Shown here piece after piece: positions 10,393 through 62,647 of a stretch of DNA of 64,000 nucleotides. The position numbers and the translations under genes are program-made. The notes below the pieces were generated by a model. It made no database searches. It was not told the DNA's origin and was given only the letters and a program-made list of their open reading frames with translations. The stretch comes from a virus: the IMG/VR virus record IMGVR_UViG_3300047444_000783, positions 32,001-96,000 of that record; one strand, given 5' to 3'. Position 1 is the first letter of the stretch. Each line of letters starts with the position of its first letter.

Positions 10393-10962
10393 TTACAGAC
10401 CCTCCGCCTCGAGGCGTGCTTCGAACTGGCCGCGAGTGAGCGTGCAGATCTTTGCTGCTACGGTCTCGCCATCATAACTGACGAACCCCGGTATCTCCGC
10501 CAGATAGTTGAACCCCAAGCGCTTGCAATACCGAATGGCCAGCCGGTTGACGCTCGGCGTAATCCCGTAGATCATCGTCATCTCGACGAGCGCGAACCAC
10601 TGGGAGAGGCAGATGTCGCCGAAGACCTTCGTCAGCGGCGCGCTCCAATAGTCCCGGAAAAAGCAGAAAGACCCGATCCCTTTCCGGAGCGTGTCGCAGT
10701 CTTCGATGTTCGTCAGCCAGGCTAGCCCGACATACCGGCCGTTCGTCTGGTCGAGAAAGATACTGGTCACCGCGTCGTGCTCGGCGAAGTGGACGAACTC
10801 ATCTTCGGTAACCTGCTTGTTATGGAACAGCATGCGGTCCAACTGCTCGGCGCACAGGCGCCGATAGATCAGCCGGAGGACGTCTTTGGGCAGGTTGTCC
10901 TTCTCCCGGTAGTACGGGATGACGGCCGGAACGAACTGGGTGGGCCTCAGTACTGTACTCAT
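10393..10962 (-). CDS. GNAT-fold acetyltransferase-like protein (189 aa)
   Basis: YVGLAWL...GITPSVNRLAIRYCKRLGF motif. Start moved to ATG 10962 because the longer track call overlaps a real + strand gene. Confidence 0.7.
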   Translation of the reverse strand: MSTVLRPTQFVPAVIPYYREKDNLPKDVLRLIYRRLCAEQLDRMLFHNKQVTEDEFVHFAEHDAVTSIFLDQTNGRYVGLAWLTNIEDCDTLRKGIGSFCFFRDYWSAPLTKVFGDICLSQWFALVEMTMIYGITPSVNRLAIRYCKRLGFNYLAEIPGFVSYDGETVAAKICTLTRGQFEARLEAEGL

Positions 10963-19973: not shown

Positions 19974-22319
19974 TCAAACGGTCCTCCCAAATTCTCTAAA
20001 TTCAACCCCAGGTGTTATAAGGCAGATGGTGAGTGTGTTGCCAGGTGTCGCCGCGTAATCGGCGCTACCGGCGAGAAACAGCGGGGTAAAGCTGGCGCCA
20101 CAAGATTGGCCATTTTTAATCGTTGGACTACCCGAGAACTCTATGTAAATCATCGCGCCTTGCTGCCAGCCGGTGTGCTCAATGCAATGAATCGGGGTGT
20201 TGCCAGCGATGACAAATACGATCCCGCCGGTGCCCAGCGTCGTGTTGTTCGCGGCCGTAACCGGAGTTATATCCAGAGAGAACTGGACCCGCGCGCGACC
20301 GACCGTCAGCCCGCCGTTGAGCGTCGAATGGTTGCCGACAACAAGTCCGTCCTGAATGGTTAAATCCCCGAATTCAGCCTGGGTTATTCTGGTCGCCCCG
20401 TTGAAAGTCCCATCGGTGTACCCGCCATACGCAGTCCCGTTCAGCGAGATGTTTTCCGCTCCATTCACGATGTTATGGGCGAGTGTCGTGATCGTGTTTA
20501 CGTACTGAGTTTCCAGCCAGTTGACCGGAGTCCCAAGGTCTCTAATATGGTTGTTTGTTACGATCAGGGCGAGATATGCGCTGACAATAATTGTCGAACT
20601 TGCGCCCCCGGTGTTGATGTCCCGCAATTCGCAGTTTGTGATATTCAGCCGACGTCCACCACCGGCCCCCGTATTACCGTGGATCACAGTCCCGGTATAC
20701 TGCGTGCCGCTGATGATCACTCCATCGATGTCATAACTTCCGGACGGCCCGGTCGCACCAGCCCCGTCAACTCGAATAGCCTTATCCGGATGTCCGTTGT
20801 TGTTGATGATCTGACCGCCTTTTAAAATCAGGTCCGAGTTGAAGGCATAGACATCGTAAGGCTGGGCAACGGCAGCGTTCCGGACATTATCGATAAAACT
20901 GAACCCCGACAGAGTGACGCTCGAAGCATTGCAAATGAGCGCCTGTCCCTGGTAGGAGTTGGCGATAAAGTTAGAGATGGTTATGTTCGTCGCGTTCAGA
21001 GTTGAGATGCCGAATTCTTGAGGCTGAACAGTGAGATTCGTTCCATCGCCGACAACGTTTGAGATTGCCACGCTGTCGATGTCGCCAGGATTGGCACCGT
21101 TAAATTGAATAATTCCTGCGCCGCCATGATTCGAGCGGATATCGCTGATGACAGACTTGTACAGATGGTCGGCGGTGACGCAAAGATTTCCACCGAAGCA
21201 GTCGAGATCTGCGATCGTCAGACCTTGCGGTGCGAGCGAGGAACCGCCGGTTCGCGTGACATACACACAGTTTACGACCCCGCCCCCGTTGTTGATCCAG
21301 TCGCACTGGTTGTGAATGATCTTTGTCCCGGCCGTATCCACGGTCGCCGTCGATTCGACGAGCACGCCAATGCTGGACAGGAACCAATTGTTTTCAATGC
21401 TGGTTAAGTTCCCTCTTACTCGGATCGCGGCATGTGCCGCATCCTGGCCACTGGAAGTGATCATCATGTGTTTAACGGCTGACGGGCAGGCCCAGTTGAA
21501 CATCTGGATCAGATCGACGTTTTGATCGCTGAATAGGGTCGTGGTCCCCCTACCCTCCCCGACTAGCGTCAGACAGGCATTGATCACCCCGACTGGCACG
21601 CCTCTACCGACGTCTCCAGGGCACCCGTTGTAATGACAGGTCGACACGGCCTGGGTGATGTAGTACGTGCTTGCCGGAAACTTGACGATCCCGGCCGGAG
21701 CAATCTCGAGGGTATTGCTGACAGACCCGGCGACCACGAAGTCTACGGCCGCCTGGATCGGCGCCCAGTCGTCGGTCACGCCATCACCAACCGCGCCGAA
21801 CCACTGTGGATAGATGCAGGCGGCTACCCCGGCCGCTACCGGGGCGGTCGTGCCAGCGAAGATCTTATAGAGGCCGGCAATGATCTGGCCGGCGAACGAG
21901 AGCGTTACGCTGGACGTCGACAGGATGGACCCGGGCGCGAACGAGATCGATACGTTGAGCGGAACTGTCGTATTGACCGCAACGGTTGTCGTCCCGACGC
22001 CGAGGTACAGATGCACCGGCTTGGTCGACGACAGTCCGGTAAACGGGTTAGTTGACCATGTTTGAGCACCATGTAAGGACCGCGCATCGACGACCCCGCC
22101 GGTCGATGGCAGGGCCGCGATCGCCGCCGCGATCTTGAGCGAGGCATCGGCCCCCGCGAAATCCGCGGCGCTCAGGTACGCCGGACCGAGCAGCGAATGG
22201 ATCCCGATCAGGTTCAACGTCTCGGTCGACCCGTCCGGCAGCGTAACGCCGGCGATCGGGCCATGGCCGAACGCCAGGTCCTCCTCGAAGTTGGATCCGA
22301 ATATAAATGTCTCTGCCAT
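19974..22319 (-). CDS. Tailspike 3, beta-helix (781 aa)
   Basis: Shared anchor; PQWFGAVGDGVTDDWAPIQAA motif; beta-helix repeats. Confidence 0.85.
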   Translation of the reverse strand: MAETFIFGSNFEEDLAFGHGPIAGVTLPDGSTETLNLIGIHSLLGPAYLSAADFAGADASLKIAAAIAALPSTGGVVDARSLHGAQTWSTNPFTGLSSTKPVHLYLGVGTTTVAVNTTVPLNVSISFAPGSILSTSSVTLSFAGQIIAGLYKIFAGTTAPVAAGVAACIYPQWFGAVGDGVTDDWAPIQAAVDFVVAGSVSNTLEIAPAGIVKFPASTYYITQAVSTCHYNGCPGDVGRGVPVGVINACLTLVGEGRGTTTLFSDQNVDLIQMFNWACPSAVKHMMITSSGQDAAHAAIRVRGNLTSIENNWFLSSIGVLVESTATVDTAGTKIIHNQCDWINNGGGVVNCVYVTRTGGSSLAPQGLTIADLDCFGGNLCVTADHLYKSVISDIRSNHGGAGIIQFNGANPGDIDSVAISNVVGDGTNLTVQPQEFGISTLNATNITISNFIANSYQGQALICNASSVTLSGFSFIDNVRNAAVAQPYDVYAFNSDLILKGGQIINNNGHPDKAIRVDGAGATGPSGSYDIDGVIISGTQYTGTVIHGNTGAGGGRRLNITNCELRDINTGGASSTIIVSAYLALIVTNNHIRDLGTPVNWLETQYVNTITTLAHNIVNGAENISLNGTAYGGYTDGTFNGATRITQAEFGDLTIQDGLVVGNHSTLNGGLTVGRARVQFSLDITPVTAANNTTLGTGGIVFVIAGNTPIHCIEHTGWQQGAMIYIEFSGSPTIKNGQSCGASFTPLFLAGSADYAATPGNTLTICLITPGVEFREFGRTV

Positions 22320-23413
22320 TATTGAGGCGTCCCCTGCGGTTGCGAAACCTTGTCGTGCACGGCGCTGATCAGCCGGCGGAATAGCTGGACCCCGAAATCG
22401 AATCTCAGCTTGCAGTATTTGGCGCGCGGCAGATCCTGCCCCTCGCCCTGCTTGTTCAGCATCACCATCAGCGTCCAGAACTTAATGTACGGGAGCACGA
22501 AGTCCGGCACGCGCATCAGATCGTCCAGCCTCGACACGTCATCGATCAGCCGCGTCCCCAGGATCTCGAAGTTCGTCAGACCGGTCAGCATCTGACGGAT
22601 GGTCCCCGCGTACGGCCGGCCGTGAGGGAGGACCCCGTTGATTGCCGGGACCCCAATGGAATACCGGAATAAACCGCCCCCGCCGCCGCCTGGCAGCGTC
22701 GCCGAGTAAAAGGTAGTATCGGCCGTCCAGGCCGCGCTCGCGCCTGTAACGGTCACTGTGGCGTTCGCCGTCAACGTTACCTGGTGGGTTGTGTTGAATC
22801 CGCTGATCGTTGTGATCAGCGCCCCGCCGGCCGGCCCGGCTCCGGCAACCGCGATCCGTTTCCCGATATCGTCAGTCGTGAAGGTCGCGCTCGCGCTGTT
22901 GAGTACGTTCGTTGTCGCGTTGATCGCCGCGTCGGTCACGTTCGTCGTCGCGTGCATCATGTACCGAAGGGTCCCGAGGTTACCGACCGTTCGGTAGCCT
23001 GTTCCGGTCATCACACTCGTCGGCGCCCGGTCCATTTCGAATGTCTTGGTCGACAGTTGATCCTGGTGATACTGCCGCGGGACCCCCGGGAGCGTCCGCC
23101 ACTTCGGATTATCGCGATCCAGATTCAGCCGGGTTGTCCGGTAAGTCGCTTTGTTGTTGAAGGCGATCCGGTCCAACTGCATCGTGAAGTACGGGTCCGC
23201 GTAGATCCGCTGGTTTGTCACGCTCTGGACCGCCGCAATCACCTTAATCAACTGTGTTTGCAGCACGAACTCCTTCGCCGCCGCATTCAGGTACCCAATG
23301 ATCTCATCGGGCGACCACAGTCCTGTCGACCAGTCGATGCCTCCACGATTGGAGTAATCCTCCTGCACGAGTACAGCGAGTTGTGAAAGTACGGTCGCGA
23401 CGGTTGTGCTCAT
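22319..23413 (-). CDS. Head-tail adaptor/ring protein with inserted beta domain (364 aa)
   Basis: WSPDEIIGYLNAA N-terminal adaptor motif and helical C-terminus; insertion DAAINAT...FTTDDIGKRIAVAGAG. Confidence 0.65.
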   Translation of the reverse strand: MSTTVATVLSQLAVLVQEDYSNRGGIDWSTGLWSPDEIIGYLNAAAKEFVLQTQLIKVIAAVQSVTNQRIYADPYFTMQLDRIAFNNKATYRTTRLNLDRDNPKWRTLPGVPRQYHQDQLSTKTFEMDRAPTSVMTGTGYRTVGNLGTLRYMMHATTNVTDAAINATTNVLNSASATFTTDDIGKRIAVAGAGPAGGALITTISGFNTTHQVTLTANATVTVTGASAAWTADTTFYSATLPGGGGGGLFRYSIGVPAINGVLPHGRPYAGTIRQMLTGLTNFEILGTRLIDDVSRLDDLMRVPDFVLPYIKFWTLMVMLNKQGEGQDLPRAKYCKLRFDFGVQLFRRLISAVHDKVSQPQGTPQ

Positions 23414-36379: not shown

Positions 36380-36940
36380 TTACCAATCCATGTTCATTAA
36401 CAGCGCCGGGACCTGACCGGCGACACACGCACCGACGACGCGAGCCGCCGGAACGTTCGTGACCGTCGATCCGTCCGCGATAACGGCGAACTGGTTGTCC
36501 GTCGTCGACCCGATCAGGATGTTCGACTGGGCCGTGACGCCGGTACCGACGCACTGCGCGACTCCGCCTACCTGAACCCACGTATAGAACGCGACGAGCG
36601 GTAGCGTGATCGTGAACGGACCCATGACGCCCTGAACCTGCAGGGAACTCGTCGCACCCGTACCATCGTAGTCGGTTGCGAGAGTGATGACCGGCACGGT
36701 CGTGCCCGGTACTCCGCCTGGCGTAAACGTCAGTGCGTACAGCGGGGCGCCTGCGACAGGAACGACCGTCACGTCGATTTTCACGTACCGGATGACGATG
36801 TTTCCGTAGCGGACTTTACCGCCGATTGGGTTCTTCGGCGTCAGGTCGGCCTGGTTGTACCAACCCAATGGGCTGATCTGCGGCTGGGCAATCGCAATAT
36901 TGCCGTACGTTCCGCCGGGGACTAGACTTGGCTGTGTCAT
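36380..36940 (-). CDS. Capsid decoration/cement-like protein (186 aa)
   Basis: Directly after MCP; RYVK and YTWVQVGG motifs; SD GGGGAGG. Confidence 0.65.
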   Translation of the reverse strand: MTQPSLVPGGTYGNIAIAQPQISPLGWYNQADLTPKNPIGGKVRYGNIVIRYVKIDVTVVPVAGAPLYALTFTPGGVPGTTVPVITLATDYDGTGATSSLQVQGVMGPFTITLPLVAFYTWVQVGGVAQCVGTGVTAQSNILIGSTTDNQFAVIADGSTVTNVPAARVVGACVAGQVPALLMNMDW

Positions 36941-36955
36941 TGTTTTATCCTCCCC

Positions 36956-37942
36956 TTAGCTCAGCGTTGGGATGTTGGTAAGACGGAAGTTGTACCGTGG
37001 GTTCGCCACGATAATATTTCCGGCCCAGAGGTACTGACCACTTCGGTCATCCGAATTGTAGATTTCCTTGAAGCCGGTGAACCCAAACTGGTACCGCTTC
37101 AGGGTCGAAGTGAAGAACATCAGGTTCTCCTGCTTCGTGTTCATTCCGTACATGCTGCCGGCAGGGGAATACTGGTCGACAACAACCTGGGCGCCAATGA
37201 AATTGAACGAGCGGAAGCCGGCTTTCGCCACATCCGAGGACTCCTCGTTGAACCGCTGCATCGGCTGCAGTTTGTTGAAGAACCAGTTCCACGAGTTCTG
37301 ATCCGATACCAGCATGTCCACATGCTGCACACCGAACCAGCAACTACCCATCGCGAGTTCGACCGCCTTCAGGGAGAAGCCGCTCGAGAGCGATGCTACG
37401 TATCCGTTGGCACCCTGGTTGTTCGTGCCGTTCGATACGCCGAGGTCCGTGCGGGTGATACCGCCGACCGTCGTGAAGAGGGATCCGTTGTCGAACCACT
37501 GATTGAAGCCGTCGACGGATTTCGTGCTGCTGCTCGTACCGAGACCGTCCAAATACATGTCGGTCGCGATCAGCTTCGCCATCTTGCCAGCCGCGTTGGC
37601 CAATTTGCTGCCAACGAACGGGACGGCCTGCATCGGTCCGCGTGCCAGAACGTCGTCCGTGCCGTAGAGCGACACGTTGACGTAATAGAACTTCGGATCG
37701 ACAGCGAATGCTGTGTCAGTCTGAACGTAATCCGTATTGAAGGTTTCCCCGCGTCCGAACGGTCCGCCGTTCAACTCCGCGTAGCCGATGTTCTGGCGAA
37801 TTTTGATGCCACCATCGAACTGCTGGCCGTTGTTCGTGCGAATACGAACGAAGACGGGAGAACTCTTGTATACGACGTCCGCTACAGTGGGGATGATTTT
37901 GTCCTGAACTTTTCCGTTCAAGTCTTCCCACGTTAACGCCAT
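36956..37942 (-). CDS. Major capsid protein (328 aa)
   Basis: IIPTVADVVYKSSP...GG..I...I.Y podoviral-type MCP pattern, MYLDG.G; strong SD AAGGAG; follows the scaffold gene. Confidence 0.85.
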   Translation of the reverse strand: MALTWEDLNGKVQDKIIPTVADVVYKSSPVFVRIRTNNGQQFDGGIKIRQNIGYAELNGGPFGRGETFNTDYVQTDTAFAVDPKFYYVNVSLYGTDDVLARGPMQAVPFVGSKLANAAGKMAKLIATDMYLDGLGTSSSTKSVDGFNQWFDNGSLFTTVGGITRTDLGVSNGTNNQGANGYVASLSSGFSLKAVELAMGSCWFGVQHVDMLVSDQNSWNWFFNKLQPMQRFNEESSDVAKAGFRSFNFIGAQVVVDQYSPAGSMYGMNTKQENLMFFTSTLKRYQFGFTGFKEIYNSDDRSGQYLWAGNIIVANPRYNFRLTNIPTLS

Positions 37943-38068: not shown

Positions 38069-38950
38069 TTAAAATTTGCCCTCGTTGACAAGTTCCTGGC
38101 CGGCCGCAGCCGCCGCTTCCTGCCACGTGGCGTATCCTTTGTCACCCGTGCCGCCGCTCGTGCGGTTGCGCTCCTGCTCCAGCCGTAACTCGAGCGGTCC
38201 GCGTCCTGGCGCTCCTGGACCACCCGGTCCGCCGCCGCCTGGCACGTTCTGATTCGTGTTGTGCTTTTCAGCCCATTCCTTTTCCCACTGAGCGCGCTCG
38301 AGTTTCTTGAGTTCGTCCGCGTTCTTGGCCGTGTAGGCTTCGGATAGATCGAGGTTCTTACCGAGAGCCGCCTGATCGTTCGTGAACTTGATCAACTCGG
38401 TGATCTCGGCCTTCGTCATGCGCTTGCCGAACTTCTCGATGTGGCTGGCCTGGATTTCGTTGATCGTCAGGATCTGGTCGCCGATAAATCCAATCCCGTC
38501 CTGCCATTTCTTATTCAACTCGTCTGGCGTCACGACGCTCTTCAGCCGCTCCTGGAGACCAGTGATGCCGGCGCTGAGTTTCGCGATTTCCTTGGATACC
38601 GCATCCTCTTCAGCGGGCGTCCGCTCGCCACCGCGGCCCGATCCGCCAGCGGCTTCGAGTTCGGCGATTCGTGCCTGGGCTGCCGTGACCGCGTCATTCG
38701 CCTTCTTGACTTCGTCTTTCCATGCGGTGACAGCGGCATTCGATTTGTCGTAAAAGTCTTTGTTCTTGACGTCCCAATCGGCTTTCTCAGCCTTCAGGGC
38801 ATTCGCCTGGCGGGTGTAATCTTCGCGCGACATCCACAGATTCTGAACATCGGCCGGCGCGTCCTCGAGCGTGGCAATCAGGTTCGCTCGGTACTTCTCG
38901 TCCATCTGCGTCTTTTCAAGCTGCTCTTTGAGTTTCGGATTAATTGGCAT
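38069..38950 (-). CDS. Capsid scaffolding protein (293 aa)
   Basis: EDYTRQ motif, charged coiled coil, Gly/Pro tail; immediately upstream of MCP. Confidence 0.8.
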   Translation of the reverse strand: MPINPKLKEQLEKTQMDEKYRANLIATLEDAPADVQNLWMSREDYTRQANALKAEKADWDVKNKDFYDKSNAAVTAWKDEVKKANDAVTAAQARIAELEAAGGSGRGGERTPAEEDAVSKEIAKLSAGITGLQERLKSVVTPDELNKKWQDGIGFIGDQILTINEIQASHIEKFGKRMTKAEITELIKFTNDQAALGKNLDLSEAYTAKNADELKKLERAQWEKEWAEKHNTNQNVPGGGGPGGPGAPGRGPLELRLEQERNRTSGGTGDKGYATWQEAAAAAGQELVNEGKF

Positions 38951-39015
38951 GGTCCCTCGCTTCCGGATCCTTCGCGGCCATCTCTGGCTAAGCGCTACGG
39001 ACTAACGGCTACGCG

Positions 39016-39065
39016 TTTAATAAATTAAATTAACGTTTGACCGTCGTAAGGGAGGGTGTTAGGCT
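39016..39065 (+). promoter_or_regulatory. sigma70-type promoter for a + strand small RNA
   Basis: AT-rich UP tract, TTGACC (39037-39042), 17 nt, TG-n-TAGGCT (39060-39065). Confidence 0.65.
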
Positions 39066-39070
39066 GGGGT

Positions 39071-39154
39071 TCTACTATCGTTCCCTGGCCGATCGCTCCC
39101 ACGCGGTCGCCACTGAAAGCGGTCGGCCCGGCAAGGTCGGCCGCTTTTCTTTCT
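39071..39154 (+). ncRNA. Candidate ~85-nt small regulatory RNA
   Basis: Bounded by a promoter and an intrinsic terminator; internal hairpin CGATCGC-TCCCAC-GCGGTCG; no ORF with an RBS. Confidence 0.55.
39116..39154 (+). terminator. Intrinsic terminator (+ strand)
   Basis: GCGGTCGGCC-CGGCAA-GGTCGGCCGC followed by TTTTCTTT. Confidence 0.75.
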
Positions 39155-39177
39155 ACAACTTTAGGCTAATCGGTCTG

Positions 39178-39372
39178 TCAAGAGCGGTTCCAAATCTCTG
39201 TCAAATCCTGCTTGACGCTCAGGTATGTGGGTGTGATTTTGAGGCGTTGGAGTTGCGTGAACGACAGGATGTACGAGCCGTTCCCGACGATGATGCTCGT
39301 CAGACCGCCGGATGACGAGTTCGGGGTCGTGTCACCGAAATAGGTCTGACCGAAATAGAAGGCGCCGAACAT
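39178..39372 (-). CDS. Small protein with FG-repeat N-terminus (64 aa)
   Basis: MFGAFYFGQTYFG start; directly abuts the GT stop. Confidence 0.6.
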   Translation of the reverse strand: MFGAFYFGQTYFGDTTPNSSSGGLTSIIVGNGSYILSFTQLQRLKITPTYLSVKQDLTEIWNRS

Positions 39373-58119: not shown

Positions 58120-60117
58120 TTAAAGGTGGTTGTATTCCGGAGTTCCGGAATTCTCCTGTTTGTCAAATAGTGAAAAGTCGGTGTTGTGGGCGCCGCGGCC
58201 GTCATCCGGGAGCGGCGCCTCGTCGAGCATCGTGAACAGGCGTGGATCGAGTTCCATCAGGCAGTAGCAGCAGATCATCGCGCCAAACAGCGCGTCGTCG
58301 TGCTCACCGCCTGCCGCCTCGAAACGGTCTGTCTGGTCCGGGTTTTCGTTGATGAATGCCTGGCATTCAGAATGGAGTCGAGAACTCCGGATCTCTACCG
58401 AATCGTCGATCAGGAGCGTGCGGAAGCGCGTGATCAGATCGTTCCGCGCTTTCTCGGTACCCGTGTCCCATCCCCAGAAGTTCGTAAACCGCGACTTCGC
58501 AGTCTTATCCTGCCGGCGCCACCGGTAGACCTTCGGGTACCGATGCACATGCAGGATGTTTCCGATGTGCTCGGTCATGTTGTTCGACTCGGGCGAAATC
58601 TCGCACGTGTTGTACATGTGCCCGAGCGCACAGACCATCTGAGCCAATTCCTTCGGGTTCGCGTACCCGCGGTACTCGACGCACTGGCGGATCCGTTCGC
58701 CCTTACGGCGGGGGACCCGAAAGAACTGGGCTGCCGAGAAGTCCAGTCCGGGAATACCCTTCGCCGGGTCGGATGCCCCGTAATAGATCTCCTTGGTTGT
58801 CGGCCATTCCCAGATCCAGAGCGGTGCCTGGTTGAGCATGCTCAACTGCTCGTTCGTCAACGGGCCGGTCGCGCTCGCGCTACGGGCGAAGTACCGGACG
58901 AGTAGTGGCTTATCTTCCTTGAAAATCAACTCGCCGGCCCATATCGGGTACCGGACGTCCCGGACTTCGATCTGCGCCAGTTTCTTTAACGGGAACGCCG
59001 GAATGCCCTTAGAGCGGAACGCCGATCGCGCAAACGACGGGTATTCCTGTTCAACCTTCTCGGCATCTCCTTCGGTCGCTTCGAACTGCTCGGCCTGCTC
59101 TCTCCGCCAGGCCATCTGTTCCTTCGAGATTTCGAACGCATATTGATCGCGGACCTTCGAGGCCAACTCGGTTTCTTCTTTGGTGAAGTAGAACTGCGAC
59201 TTCTCGACCTCCGAAGTGAACGGCTTCGAGTACGTCTTTTCCTTCCACCATCCGGCGAATACCGGTTTGAACTGCCCGCGCCCGCGCATGGCCGCATCCC
59301 ACATCTTGAGGAACGCGTACTTTTCGCCCGACCCCTTGGCTGTCCCCTCGACCACACAGATGACGTACGGGTTCTTCTTTGGCAGCGACGGCAGGATGTC
59401 CGACGTCAGAATCTCCGGGTGTGTCCAGAGACCGAACTCGGTCGCGTGCACGTTGTGGAGGGTGAAACCTCGAGAGGAACCGCTCGGCTTGTTCGCCGCG
59501 TCGACGAAGAATGCGCTATTCAGACCGGGGTTGCGCATCTGCTCTTCTTTGTCCTTGCGGTTGAATCGAAGGATACCGTCCCCGTGGTTATTGACCTCGA
59601 TCTCCGGGCGCATCCACCACGGCAAAAAGCTGTAGGCGAGCACGCTCATATTGAAGATCTGTTTGGAGCGCTTCATCTCGTCGGCGATCACGAGCGAGTT
59701 CGTCAGACGGTTACATGTCGTTTCCTGGAATAGCGCGCCCTGAACGAGCGTCGACCAGCGGATCTGGCGGGCCTTCAGCAGGAGGAACCACGGCGGAAGT
59801 CCGGCTTCCCAGGCGGCAACGAATTCGGCCCACAGGATCTCCTGGGTTTCGGTGAACGGGCTGACGGTCTGCAGGCGGGGCGCCTGCCAATCCTCACCCT
59901 TCGTGTTGATGACGAAGTAGTTTTCGAGGTAGTAGCGCTTGCACTGGTGGGTCCGGCCGGTCGCGCGCGCGAGTTCGATCTGGATCGCGCCGATCTCCTT
60001 CTCGGACAGCCGGGCGAGCGTCGCCCGTCGGTCGCCCTTGTTCTCGGCAAGACGGGCGTCCAGGAGTTCGATCAGATCCGAAACGTATGCGTCTCGGCGT
60101 GGGATCCGCTGTGCTAT
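58120..60117 (-). CDS. terL: Terminase large subunit; non-canonical (ATA/ACG) start, ~665 aa
   Basis: Walker A-like LLKARQIRWST lies upstream of the track start (59691); RGFT...HATE Walker B, VEGTA, ASDPAKG..DFS, HDD. The frame is open to TGA at 60151-60153 with no ATG/GTG/TTG. Confidence 0.9.
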   Translation of the reverse strand: MAQRIPRRDAYVSDLIELLDARLAENKGDRRATLARLSEKEIGAIQIELARATGRTHQCKRYYLENYFVINTKGEDWQAPRLQTVSPFTETQEILWAEFVAAWEAGLPPWFLLLKARQIRWSTLVQGALFQETTCNRLTNSLVIADEMKRSKQIFNMSVLAYSFLPWWMRPEIEVNNHGDGILRFNRKDKEEQMRNPGLNSAFFVDAANKPSGSSRGFTLHNVHATEFGLWTHPEILTSDILPSLPKKNPYVICVVEGTAKGSGEKYAFLKMWDAAMRGRGQFKPVFAGWWKEKTYSKPFTSEVEKSQFYFTKEETELASKVRDQYAFEISKEQMAWRREQAEQFEATEGDAEKVEQEYPSFARSAFRSKGIPAFPLKKLAQIEVRDVRYPIWAGELIFKEDKPLLVRYFARSASATGPLTNEQLSMLNQAPLWIWEWPTTKEIYYGASDPAKGIPGLDFSAAQFFRVPRRKGERIRQCVEYRGYANPKELAQMVCALGHMYNTCEISPESNNMTEHIGNILHVHRYPKVYRWRRQDKTAKSRFTNFWGWDTGTEKARNDLITRFRTLLIDDSVEIRSSRLHSECQAFINENPDQTDRFEAAGGEHDDALFGAMICCYCLMELDPRLFTMLDEAPLPDDGRGAHNTDFSLFDKQENSGTPEYNHL

Positions 60118-60177
60118 CGTTCCGCCCTTTAGGGGGGAAGGTCTTACATATCAGCCGGCGGCAACCGGCGTACGAAG

Positions 60178-61982: not shown

Positions 61983-62390
61983 TTACAACTTGGAGTTCTT
62001 CTTTAACTGTACATGGTACGCCAGTTCGATGAACCGACGTATTGAATCGGGAGACCGATCCTTAAGCCGCCTCGACTGCAGGTACGACCTAACCTGCACG
62101 ACGCTAACGCCAATCAGCCGGGCCGTCAACTCGACAGGTAACTCCTGATCGACTGACGTTATGAAAGCCCTTAGCCGGCCTGATCTACGCCGGCGTTCGG
62201 CAATGAACGTGTCGAGGTCGGAGACTTTAAACCGGACGGTACACCCCATCTTGACGTACGGCAGGTACCCGCGGCGCTGCCAATTCTTGACCGCGTGGAA
62301 CGTCACGTCCATATAGGCCGCCGCATGATGGACATCGAACAGGCGGGAGTCCATCATGACGATCTCCTCGAGAGACCCCTTCTCGATCAT
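61983..62390 (-). CDS. Excisionase/MerR-like HTH DNA-binding protein
   Basis: LFDVHHAAAYMDV...VKNW...G.LPYVKMG..VRF...DLD.FI. Confidence 0.8.
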   Translation of the reverse strand: MIEKGSLEEIVMMDSRLFDVHHAAAYMDVTFHAVKNWQRRGYLPYVKMGCTVRFKVSDLDTFIAERRRRSGRLRAFITSVDQELPVELTARLIGVSVVQVRSYLQSRRLKDRSPDSIRRFIELAYHVQLKKNSKL

Positions 62391-62647
62391 GCACGCTTCG
62401 CCGGCTGCTGCGCCATCTCAACCCGGATCTTCCGGCCGAGCACGGGACAATCCCGCATCTGCTCGATCGCTTTATCCGCGTCCACCCCGTCCTTCAGGGT
62501 GACGAAGCCGAAGCCGCGGGATACCGATTCCTCGTCCCGCATGATCTTGACGGCCGCGACCCCGAAGCCGTCCGATTCAAACGCGGCCTTGAGGTTGTCC
62601 TCTGTCGCGTCGTAATTAATATTTCCGATAAACAACTGCTTTCCCAC
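62387..62647 (-). CDS. RRM (RNP-1/RNP-2) RNA-binding protein (86 aa)
   Basis: RNP2 LFIGNI, RNP1 RGFGFVTL, A..AI..M....V.GRKIRVE.A; SD AGGAGG. Confidence 0.93.
   Translation of the reverse strand: MGKQLFIGNINYDATEDNLKAAFESDGFGVAAVKIMRDEESVSRGFGFVTLKDGVDADKAIEQMRDCPVLGRKIRVEMAQQPAKRA

Follow-up and report, generated by a model that had tools for sequence, protein, structure and literature searches.

A short intergenic module of an uncultivated soil phage (positions 39016-39152, + strand) looks like a self-contained gene for a trans-acting regulatory RNA of ~80 nt, with the layout of a classical base-pairing small RNA (sRNA). To judge from its sequence, the module very probably encodes an RNA. 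The large terminase gene of the same phage, terL, is the probable target, whatever the sign of the effect, and opinion is evenly balanced on the full repression model, in which the phage sRNA would act in trans by pairing over the terL initiation region and occluding it.

All positions are given in the window, the 64,000-nt stretch of DNA that was analysed, which corresponds to bases 32001-96000 of a 109,586-bp IMG/VR phage record (CheckV rating: complete). The phage is of lytic type, with a genome of ~110 kb; the GC content is ~59% and nearly all the long open reading frames (ORFs) are on the - strand. The surroundings of the module are as follows:

36956-37942, - strand: major head protein gene (MCP; PHROG 9953)
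38069-38950, - strand: gene for a 293-aa protein, probably the scaffold gene, flanking the gap on one side
38951-39177 (227 nt): intergenic gap that hosts the + strand module, antisense to all genes
39178-39372, - strand: 64-codon ORF, flanking the gap on the other side

The 293-aa gene was assigned as scaffold gene because of its position directly upstream of the major head protein gene. The genes upstream of the gap encode glycosyl- and methyl-transferases. Each phage of the pair compared below (the window's phage and G001) carries ~31-32 tRNA genes, one of them with a CAU anticodon (G000 101212-102869; G001 21472-23067).

The module was dissected into the following elements:

39016-39036, + strand: AT-rich UP-like element with the AAATTAAA motif
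39037-39042, + strand: -35 hexamer TTGACC, with a 17-nt spacer to the -10
39057-39065, + strand: extended -10, made of TGt (39057-59) and the -10 hexamer TAGGCT (39060-65)
39072-39152, + strand: predicted non-coding RNA of ~80 nt, with its start placed 7-9 nt past the -10 and its end in the U run
39075-39084, + strand: seed CTATCGTTCC (RNA CUAUCGUUCC) in the unpaired 5' end, with extended pairing over 39074-39086
39086-39112, + strand: hairpin 1, core stem 39091-96 / 39103-08, loop UCCCAC (39097-39102)
39116-39152, + strand: intrinsic terminator, 13-14-bp stem (39116-28 / 39135-47), loop CGGCAA
up to 39152, + strand: terminator tail TTTTCTTT (RNA UUUUCUUU)

From 5' to 3', the predicted RNA comprises the seed, a hairpin whose C-rich loop is anti-SD-like, a short spacer rich in A/U and a terminator that ends in a long U tail. 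The sequence features named in the first-pass annotation were all present, within 1-2 nt of where it had placed them. They include the UCCC anti-SD-like loop, found as UCCCAC in hairpin 1, and the unstructured 5' part said to hold the seed: the first ~14 nt, seed included, are unpaired in the minimum-energy fold (start near 39072-74). Compared with shuffled sequence, the + strand folded with a z of -4.4 (-4.2 for the predicted transcript). The - strand fold (z -1.8 and -2.3) was not exceptional, because two G-U pairs turn into C-A mismatches on that strand.

Within 39072-39152 there is no start codon with a ribosome-binding site, which leaves the predicted RNA without coding capacity; the listed + strand ORFs begin before the predicted transcript does, and neither of the relatives L002 and L015 conserves them. 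With cmscan and 4227 Rfam models, nothing in the whole window reached the gathering score and nothing at E<=1 was obtained on 38950-39200. No tRNA was found at the module, and BLAST of the module with its surroundings against GenBank phages returned no similar phage.

Close relatives were found via capsid searches (L002, L003, L015 and L026; MCP 86-88% identical to that of the window). L002 belongs to a genome, G001, that is complete at 107,420 bp, and L003 is identical to L002 at the locus, while L015 and L026 are contigs of 4.7 kb and 3.1 kb, respectively (L026 being Ga0126377_10068815). L002 and L015 also carry the module, with position and orientation as in the window, so that three lineages could be compared. 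The claim that a + strand promoter and terminator enclose a gene-free unit was borne out by this comparison, as the -35, the -10 and the terminator are kept in all three.

In the promoter, TTGAC does not vary (TTGACC in the window, TTGAC(C/A) in L002 and L015) and TAGGCT is identical in the three lineages; the spacer is 17 nt in the window and 18 nt, of unrelated sequence, in L002 and L015. A generic sigma-70 scanner listed the terminator and missed the promoter at 39037-39065, because TAGGCT matches TATAAT at 3 of 6 positions only. A recurring motif, consisting of (T)TAA(G/A)AAATTAAA-TTGAC, 17-18 nt and a TA-led hexamer (TAnnnN), was found ahead of gene-sense intergenic positions in both phages: at g0 68001 (window 36001, - strand), 23183 and 107327 in the phage of the window, and at 10895, 13991 and 41978 in G001. 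From this recurrence, the AAATTAAA-TTGAC motif looks like a phage-wide promoter class, of which the sRNA promoter is the sole antisense member in the two genomes compared. Its use as a gene-sense promoter class argues that the sRNA promoter is functional; the time in infection at which it would fire is not indicated by it. In silico, the putative sRNA has an independent promoter, as a trans-encoded base-pairing sRNA should.

The RNA-level features were also retained. The + strand fold had z values of -4.2, -4.7 and -3.4 in the three lineages, and the ~14 open 5' nt that precede hairpin 1 were found in L002 and L015 as well. The core stems of hairpin 1 are unrelated (GAUCGC/GCGGUC, ACCGCUC/GAGCGGU and ACGGAUCA/UGAUCCGU), while the loops stay C-rich: UCCCAC in the window, UCCCC in L002 and CCC in L015. 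The terminator loop CGGCAA is identical in the three lineages and an A/U-rich spacer precedes the terminator; the U run, 8-9 long in L002 and L015, is on the + strand only. When the terminator was aligned without gaps, 94.9% of cells were paired, versus 26-63% when the partners were slid, and 6 of the 13 pairs had changed on both sides. Five G-U cells become A-C mismatches on the opposite strand and thus fit the + strand only. Stem, U run, covariation and + strand G-U pairs are together those of an intrinsic terminator for the same strand as the RNA. A - strand or bidirectional terminator was ruled out by the C-A mismatches and the absent U run on the - strand.

The fourth relative, L026 (MCP 86% identical), has only ~85 nt (L026:611-695) from the scaffold ATG to the upstream stop. 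As this gap leaves no room for the module, L026 lacks it, and the sRNA gene is a presence/absence polymorphism (indel) among close relatives. Beyond these genomes, a single-sequence covariance model (R1) searched against 87 sources found the module only in the window, L002 and L015, and a covariance model did not find it genome-wide in five complete distant relatives. A scan of IMG/VR with the DNA pattern of the sRNA gave the three known lineages only, plus chance matches. The scaffold protein gave no matches when used as a query for relatives, the metagenome scan with the MCP gave one contig, the 3.1-kb L026 without the module, and the scan of GTDB genomes gave three distant capsid relatives in Acidobacteriota MAGs, none of them close. 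These three (L027, L028 and L029, contigs binned into the MAGs, one labelled Terracidiphilus) are the only capsid relatives in GTDB genomes and give a weak hint that Acidobacteriota is the host phylum of the phage family.

A separate feature of the gap is the scaffold leader on the - strand (38975-39012), a strongly conserved stretch flanked by the AT-rich element and the ribosome-binding site of the scaffold gene, with CGTAGCnnTTAGnC present twice in tandem. The stretch is kept in L002 and partly in L015, and L026 keeps its proximal part only (CTAAGCG...). It may be a late promoter or operator of the scaffold/capsid operon.

The evidence for a target comes from the seed. Two copies of the 10-mer CTATCGTTCC, and no more, are present, both on the + strand (39075 and 60114-60123), as the first-pass annotation had noticed, and the second occurrence lies over the start region of terL. 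The elements concerned are:

58120-60117, - strand: terL (large terminase; PHROG terminase match), AUA start at 60117-60115
60113-60127, - strand: proposed target GGG-C-GGAACGAUAG in the terL mRNA, with an SD-like GGA and the AUA; 10-bp core at 60114-60123
L004:1487-1500: homologous terL site in G001

In the window, the predicted duplex consists of the 10-bp core and 2-3 more pairs across one bulged mRNA C; GGAACGAUAG spans -6 to +4 of the terL AUA, and with the bulged C and two extra pairs the span is -10 to +4. Taken alone, this match is at chance level: in the mRNA sense of the 109.6-kb genome, the 19-nt 5' region of the sRNA has three other perfect helices of at least 10 bp, and five if one G-U pair is allowed. 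The annotation had itself conceded that a 10-mer can recur by chance.

It had also named covariation of the seed and the terL leader in related phages as a check, and here the comparison with G001 is informative. The 5' end of the G001 sRNA (GUGUCUAGUCCUUC) and the G001 terL leader (CGAACGGAUUAGACA-AUC) have both changed, and their likeness to the window is limited to CGGA and UAG. The G001 seed UGUCUAGUCC pairs with the leader at GGAUUAGACA over 10 bp, with one G-U pair, in a helix that ends at -1 of the AUC. This helix begins at the same CGGA as in the window, and the bulged C recurs as well, with UUC paired to GAA across it. Relative to the start codon, one duplex is shifted by 4 nt against the other: that of the window includes the AUA, and that of G001 stops just short of the AUC. 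The G001 sense strand has only four non-self helices of that quality in 107 kb; for a helix within +/-15 nt of a site named beforehand, this gives p ~ 4 x 30 / 107,420 ~ 0.001. Complementarity between an accessible seed and the target initiation region was thus found in both of the lineages available as independent seed/leader pairs (window and G001). Scans based on terL for the leader of the L015 lineage gave nothing new.

Genome-wide scans were carried out with the seed only, in place of full-length sRNA duplexes with accessibility scoring, which were uninformative because long imperfect GC-rich duplexes dominate them. By hybridisation energy, the rank of the terL site among ~21,000 overlapping windows was 6 for the phage of the window and 14 for G001; with target accessibility, it was 43 and 11, respectively. 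Among the top 149 sites per genome, there were four coincidences at homologous positions, versus ~2.4 expected by chance, and terL was the only pair that ranked high in both genomes (chance expectation ~0.02). Next comes a weaker coincidence, at the purine-rich SD that serves the gene following MCP (36380-36940); it lies at ~36945-36970 (- strand) in the window and ~41008 in G001, with energies of -13.9 and -15.8 kcal/mol. This match probably reflects the pyrimidine-rich 3' part of the seed (UUCCCU / UCCUUC); the site could be a secondary target, or else the pairing is a generic anti-SD effect. The proposal of a trans-acting sRNA on terL therefore stands in part: the structure of the unit and the G001 covariation speak for it, whereas the match in the single genome is at chance level and the energy rank is not the first.

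The target was said to lie over a putative terL start, and the position of this start was supported by the relatives: the AUA at 60117-15 aligns with their ATG. The terL frame is open from 60150 (58120-60150, - strand) and has no ATG, GTG or TTG before 59691, the first GTG being preceded by 153 codons. The N-terminal motif I-P-R-R-D-x-Y-V-x-D-L-I-E is common to the window, G001 and L108 with many synonymous changes, so this upstream stretch is real coding sequence, and more distant TerL homologues begin with M a few residues before the IPRRDxYV motif. The codon homologous to the relatives' ATG is AUA in the window, AUC in G001 (L004:1501-1503) and AUC in L108 (1321-1323); in-frame stops lie 1-11 codons upstream of it, with no ATG, GTG or TTG between. 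The terL of this clade is accordingly read as initiating at a near-cognate AUH codon (AUA or AUC). In eight distant relatives compared at the DNA level (six distinct sequences), ATG (in most) or TTG stands at or near the homologous position, and no sRNA copy was detectable in the DNA examined from them. L108, with its AUC start, and the sRNA-less L026 possibly come from one sample, to judge from IMG sample naming; if they are one phage, the non-AUG start is independent of the sRNA.

A minimal start-stop pair, ATG-TAA, is present at 60144-60149 (- strand), 27 nt upstream of the terL AUA and just past the hairpin located behind the upstream gene; no such pair is conserved in G001. A conserved structure of the terL leader was also considered and is unsupported, as the leaders fold no better than shuffles (z -1.5, -1.1 and +0.2).

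Upstream of the packaging genes, the window encodes an 86-aa RRM_1 protein (62387-62647, - strand; E 8.5e-15), and an RRM protein 53% identical to it is encoded upstream of terL in G001. The RRM protein was not found in three distant relatives that lack the sRNA (two complete, one 88% complete). It could be an RNA chaperone for the sRNA system. That the sRNA, co-evolving with the AUA/AUC terL leader, and the RRM protein form one clade-specific translational control module for packaging genes is a tentative and rather doubtful proposal.

In the proposed mechanism, the RNA would be transcribed from the + strand, against every protein gene, between a promoter of the phage class and the strand-specific terminator, and its 5' seed would pair with the terL mRNA, encoded 21 kb away. 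The duplex would cover the SD-like GGA and the weak non-AUG start (AUA; AUC in the relative). Since it falls inside the 30S footprint, repression is the expected outcome: most likely, 30S binding would be blocked and the synthesis of the large terminase lowered or delayed. More speculatively, late read-through of the - strand would yield a perfect antisense, which could act as a sponge for the sRNA or bring about its destruction and so relieve the effect; equally speculative is the alternative that pairing with this read-through antisense is the cis function of the RNA.

Other readings of the same observations were weighed against this one. The small RNA could be real and terL not its target, the RNA acting instead on host mRNAs or, by way of the pyrimidine-rich end of the seed and the C-rich loop of the hairpin, broadly on phage ribosome-binding sites, and the terL matches being coincidental. 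We regard this as unlikely, although much can be said for it: the evidence for the module is strong by itself, the C-rich loops (UCCCAC, UCCCC, CCC) are kept while the stems differ, the 3' part of the seed pairs with the SD after the MCP gene in both genomes, the terL site is not the top one by energy, and host genes are the targets of most characterised phage sRNAs (PMC12197685). Coincidence would nevertheless have to account for a terL helix in G001 with p ~0.001 after change in both partners, and for the bulged-C geometry common to the two duplexes, and no other high-ranking homologous coincidence was found. If terL is the target, the sRNA might conversely activate it, by opening small leader hairpins that hold the weak AUC/AUA start. 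Both G001 (GGAUU-AGAC-AAUCC) and L108 (GAUG-AGCC-CAUC) do have a small hairpin whose 3' arm contains the AUC, and the G001 seed pairs with the 5' arm and loop of the G001 hairpin. Activation is nonetheless quite improbable, given that the leaders fold no better than shuffles, that the window has no equivalent predicted hairpin, and that the duplex also covers the sole SD-like GGA and, in the window, the AUA itself.

Two further accounts do without a trans target. The RNA overlaps no ORF, lying within the 38951-39177 gap, and would be fully complementary to any - strand read-through transcript. It could thus act in cis through perfect pairing with late read-through, RNase III cutting the ~80-bp duplex and so detaching the scaffold/capsid message from the glycosylation genes that precede it; alternatively, the convergent promoter could interfere with the late transcription. 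A position just ahead of the scaffold and capsid genes, on the strand opposite to every gene, suits such a role, as does the lack of a good - strand terminator (two C-A mismatches, no U run), and no other partner in the genome comes close in strength to the perfect antisense. Cis action leaves the co-varying terL complementarity and the open 5' seed unexplained, however, and the close relative L026 manages without the module; as the main reading we judge it improbable. The two are compatible, because the antisense could act as a sponge. Highly improbable, in our view, is the absence of any RNA, in which case one protein would bind the 10-mer as DNA at both loci and the hairpins would be no more than a terminator/insulator. 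The two copies are indeed direct repeats on the same DNA strand, and those of G001 differ by a single base. This difference is G/A, exactly what a G-U pair tolerates; the unit that has the motif at its 5' end runs from promoter to terminator and shows covariation at the RNA level as well as G-U pairs specific to one strand, and nothing points to a cognate binding protein. Pairing of the sRNA with the terL leader was retained as the preferred reading.

The predicted RNA resembles the Hfq-type 5'-seed sRNAs RybB and OmrA/B in having its own promoter, a seed at the extreme 5' end, an internal hairpin, an A/U-rich spacer and a U-tailed terminator, and in forming, here by prediction, a short imperfect duplex over the SD and start of a distant mRNA. 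It differs from them in being encoded by a phage and aimed at the packaging gene of that phage, and there is no sequence or Rfam relationship. The c4 RNA of P1/P7 (immI system) is a phage RNA that pairs in trans with the ribosome-binding region of a phage mRNA; it is cut from a longer operon transcript, has two seed blocks and controls an antirepressor in lysogeny. As a trans antisense on a phage ribosome-binding site, c4 is the nearest phage RNA in function. Unlike c4, the RNA described here would be a stand-alone promoter-to-terminator unit with one 5' seed and a terminase target, and it has no Rfam match. OOP and aQ of lambda and sar of P22 are likewise small phage RNAs that run against the main direction and have intrinsic terminators, but they overlap their targets and pair perfectly, whereas here no ORF is overlapped, the proposed target is 21 kb away and the duplex is imperfect, with 10-13 bp.

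Trans-acting phage sRNAs that support the lytic programme have been described in vibriophage VP882 (VpdS) and lambda (PreS), with host mRNAs and host sRNAs as their reported targets (PMC12197685); the target proposed here differs in being the phage's own terL. A 2025 review of phage sRNAs contains no mention of terminase or capsid genes as targets (PMC12197685).

Phage-encoded sRNAs are only starting to be described, and those reported act mainly on host genes. If the terL model is true, the terL leader of the L015 lineage is expected to complement part of UCGUUUGUCAGUCUACGG, and the two sRNA/leader pairs of the window and G001 are predicted to be mutually orthogonal; a concrete, portable test system would also be gained. 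With its conserved AUA/AUC start, terL further prompts one to ask by what means, and to what extent, such starts are used. Under this model the sRNA would represent a new control point for virion packaging, at the phage's own large terminase, and an example of a seed and its target changing in concert from one relative to another.
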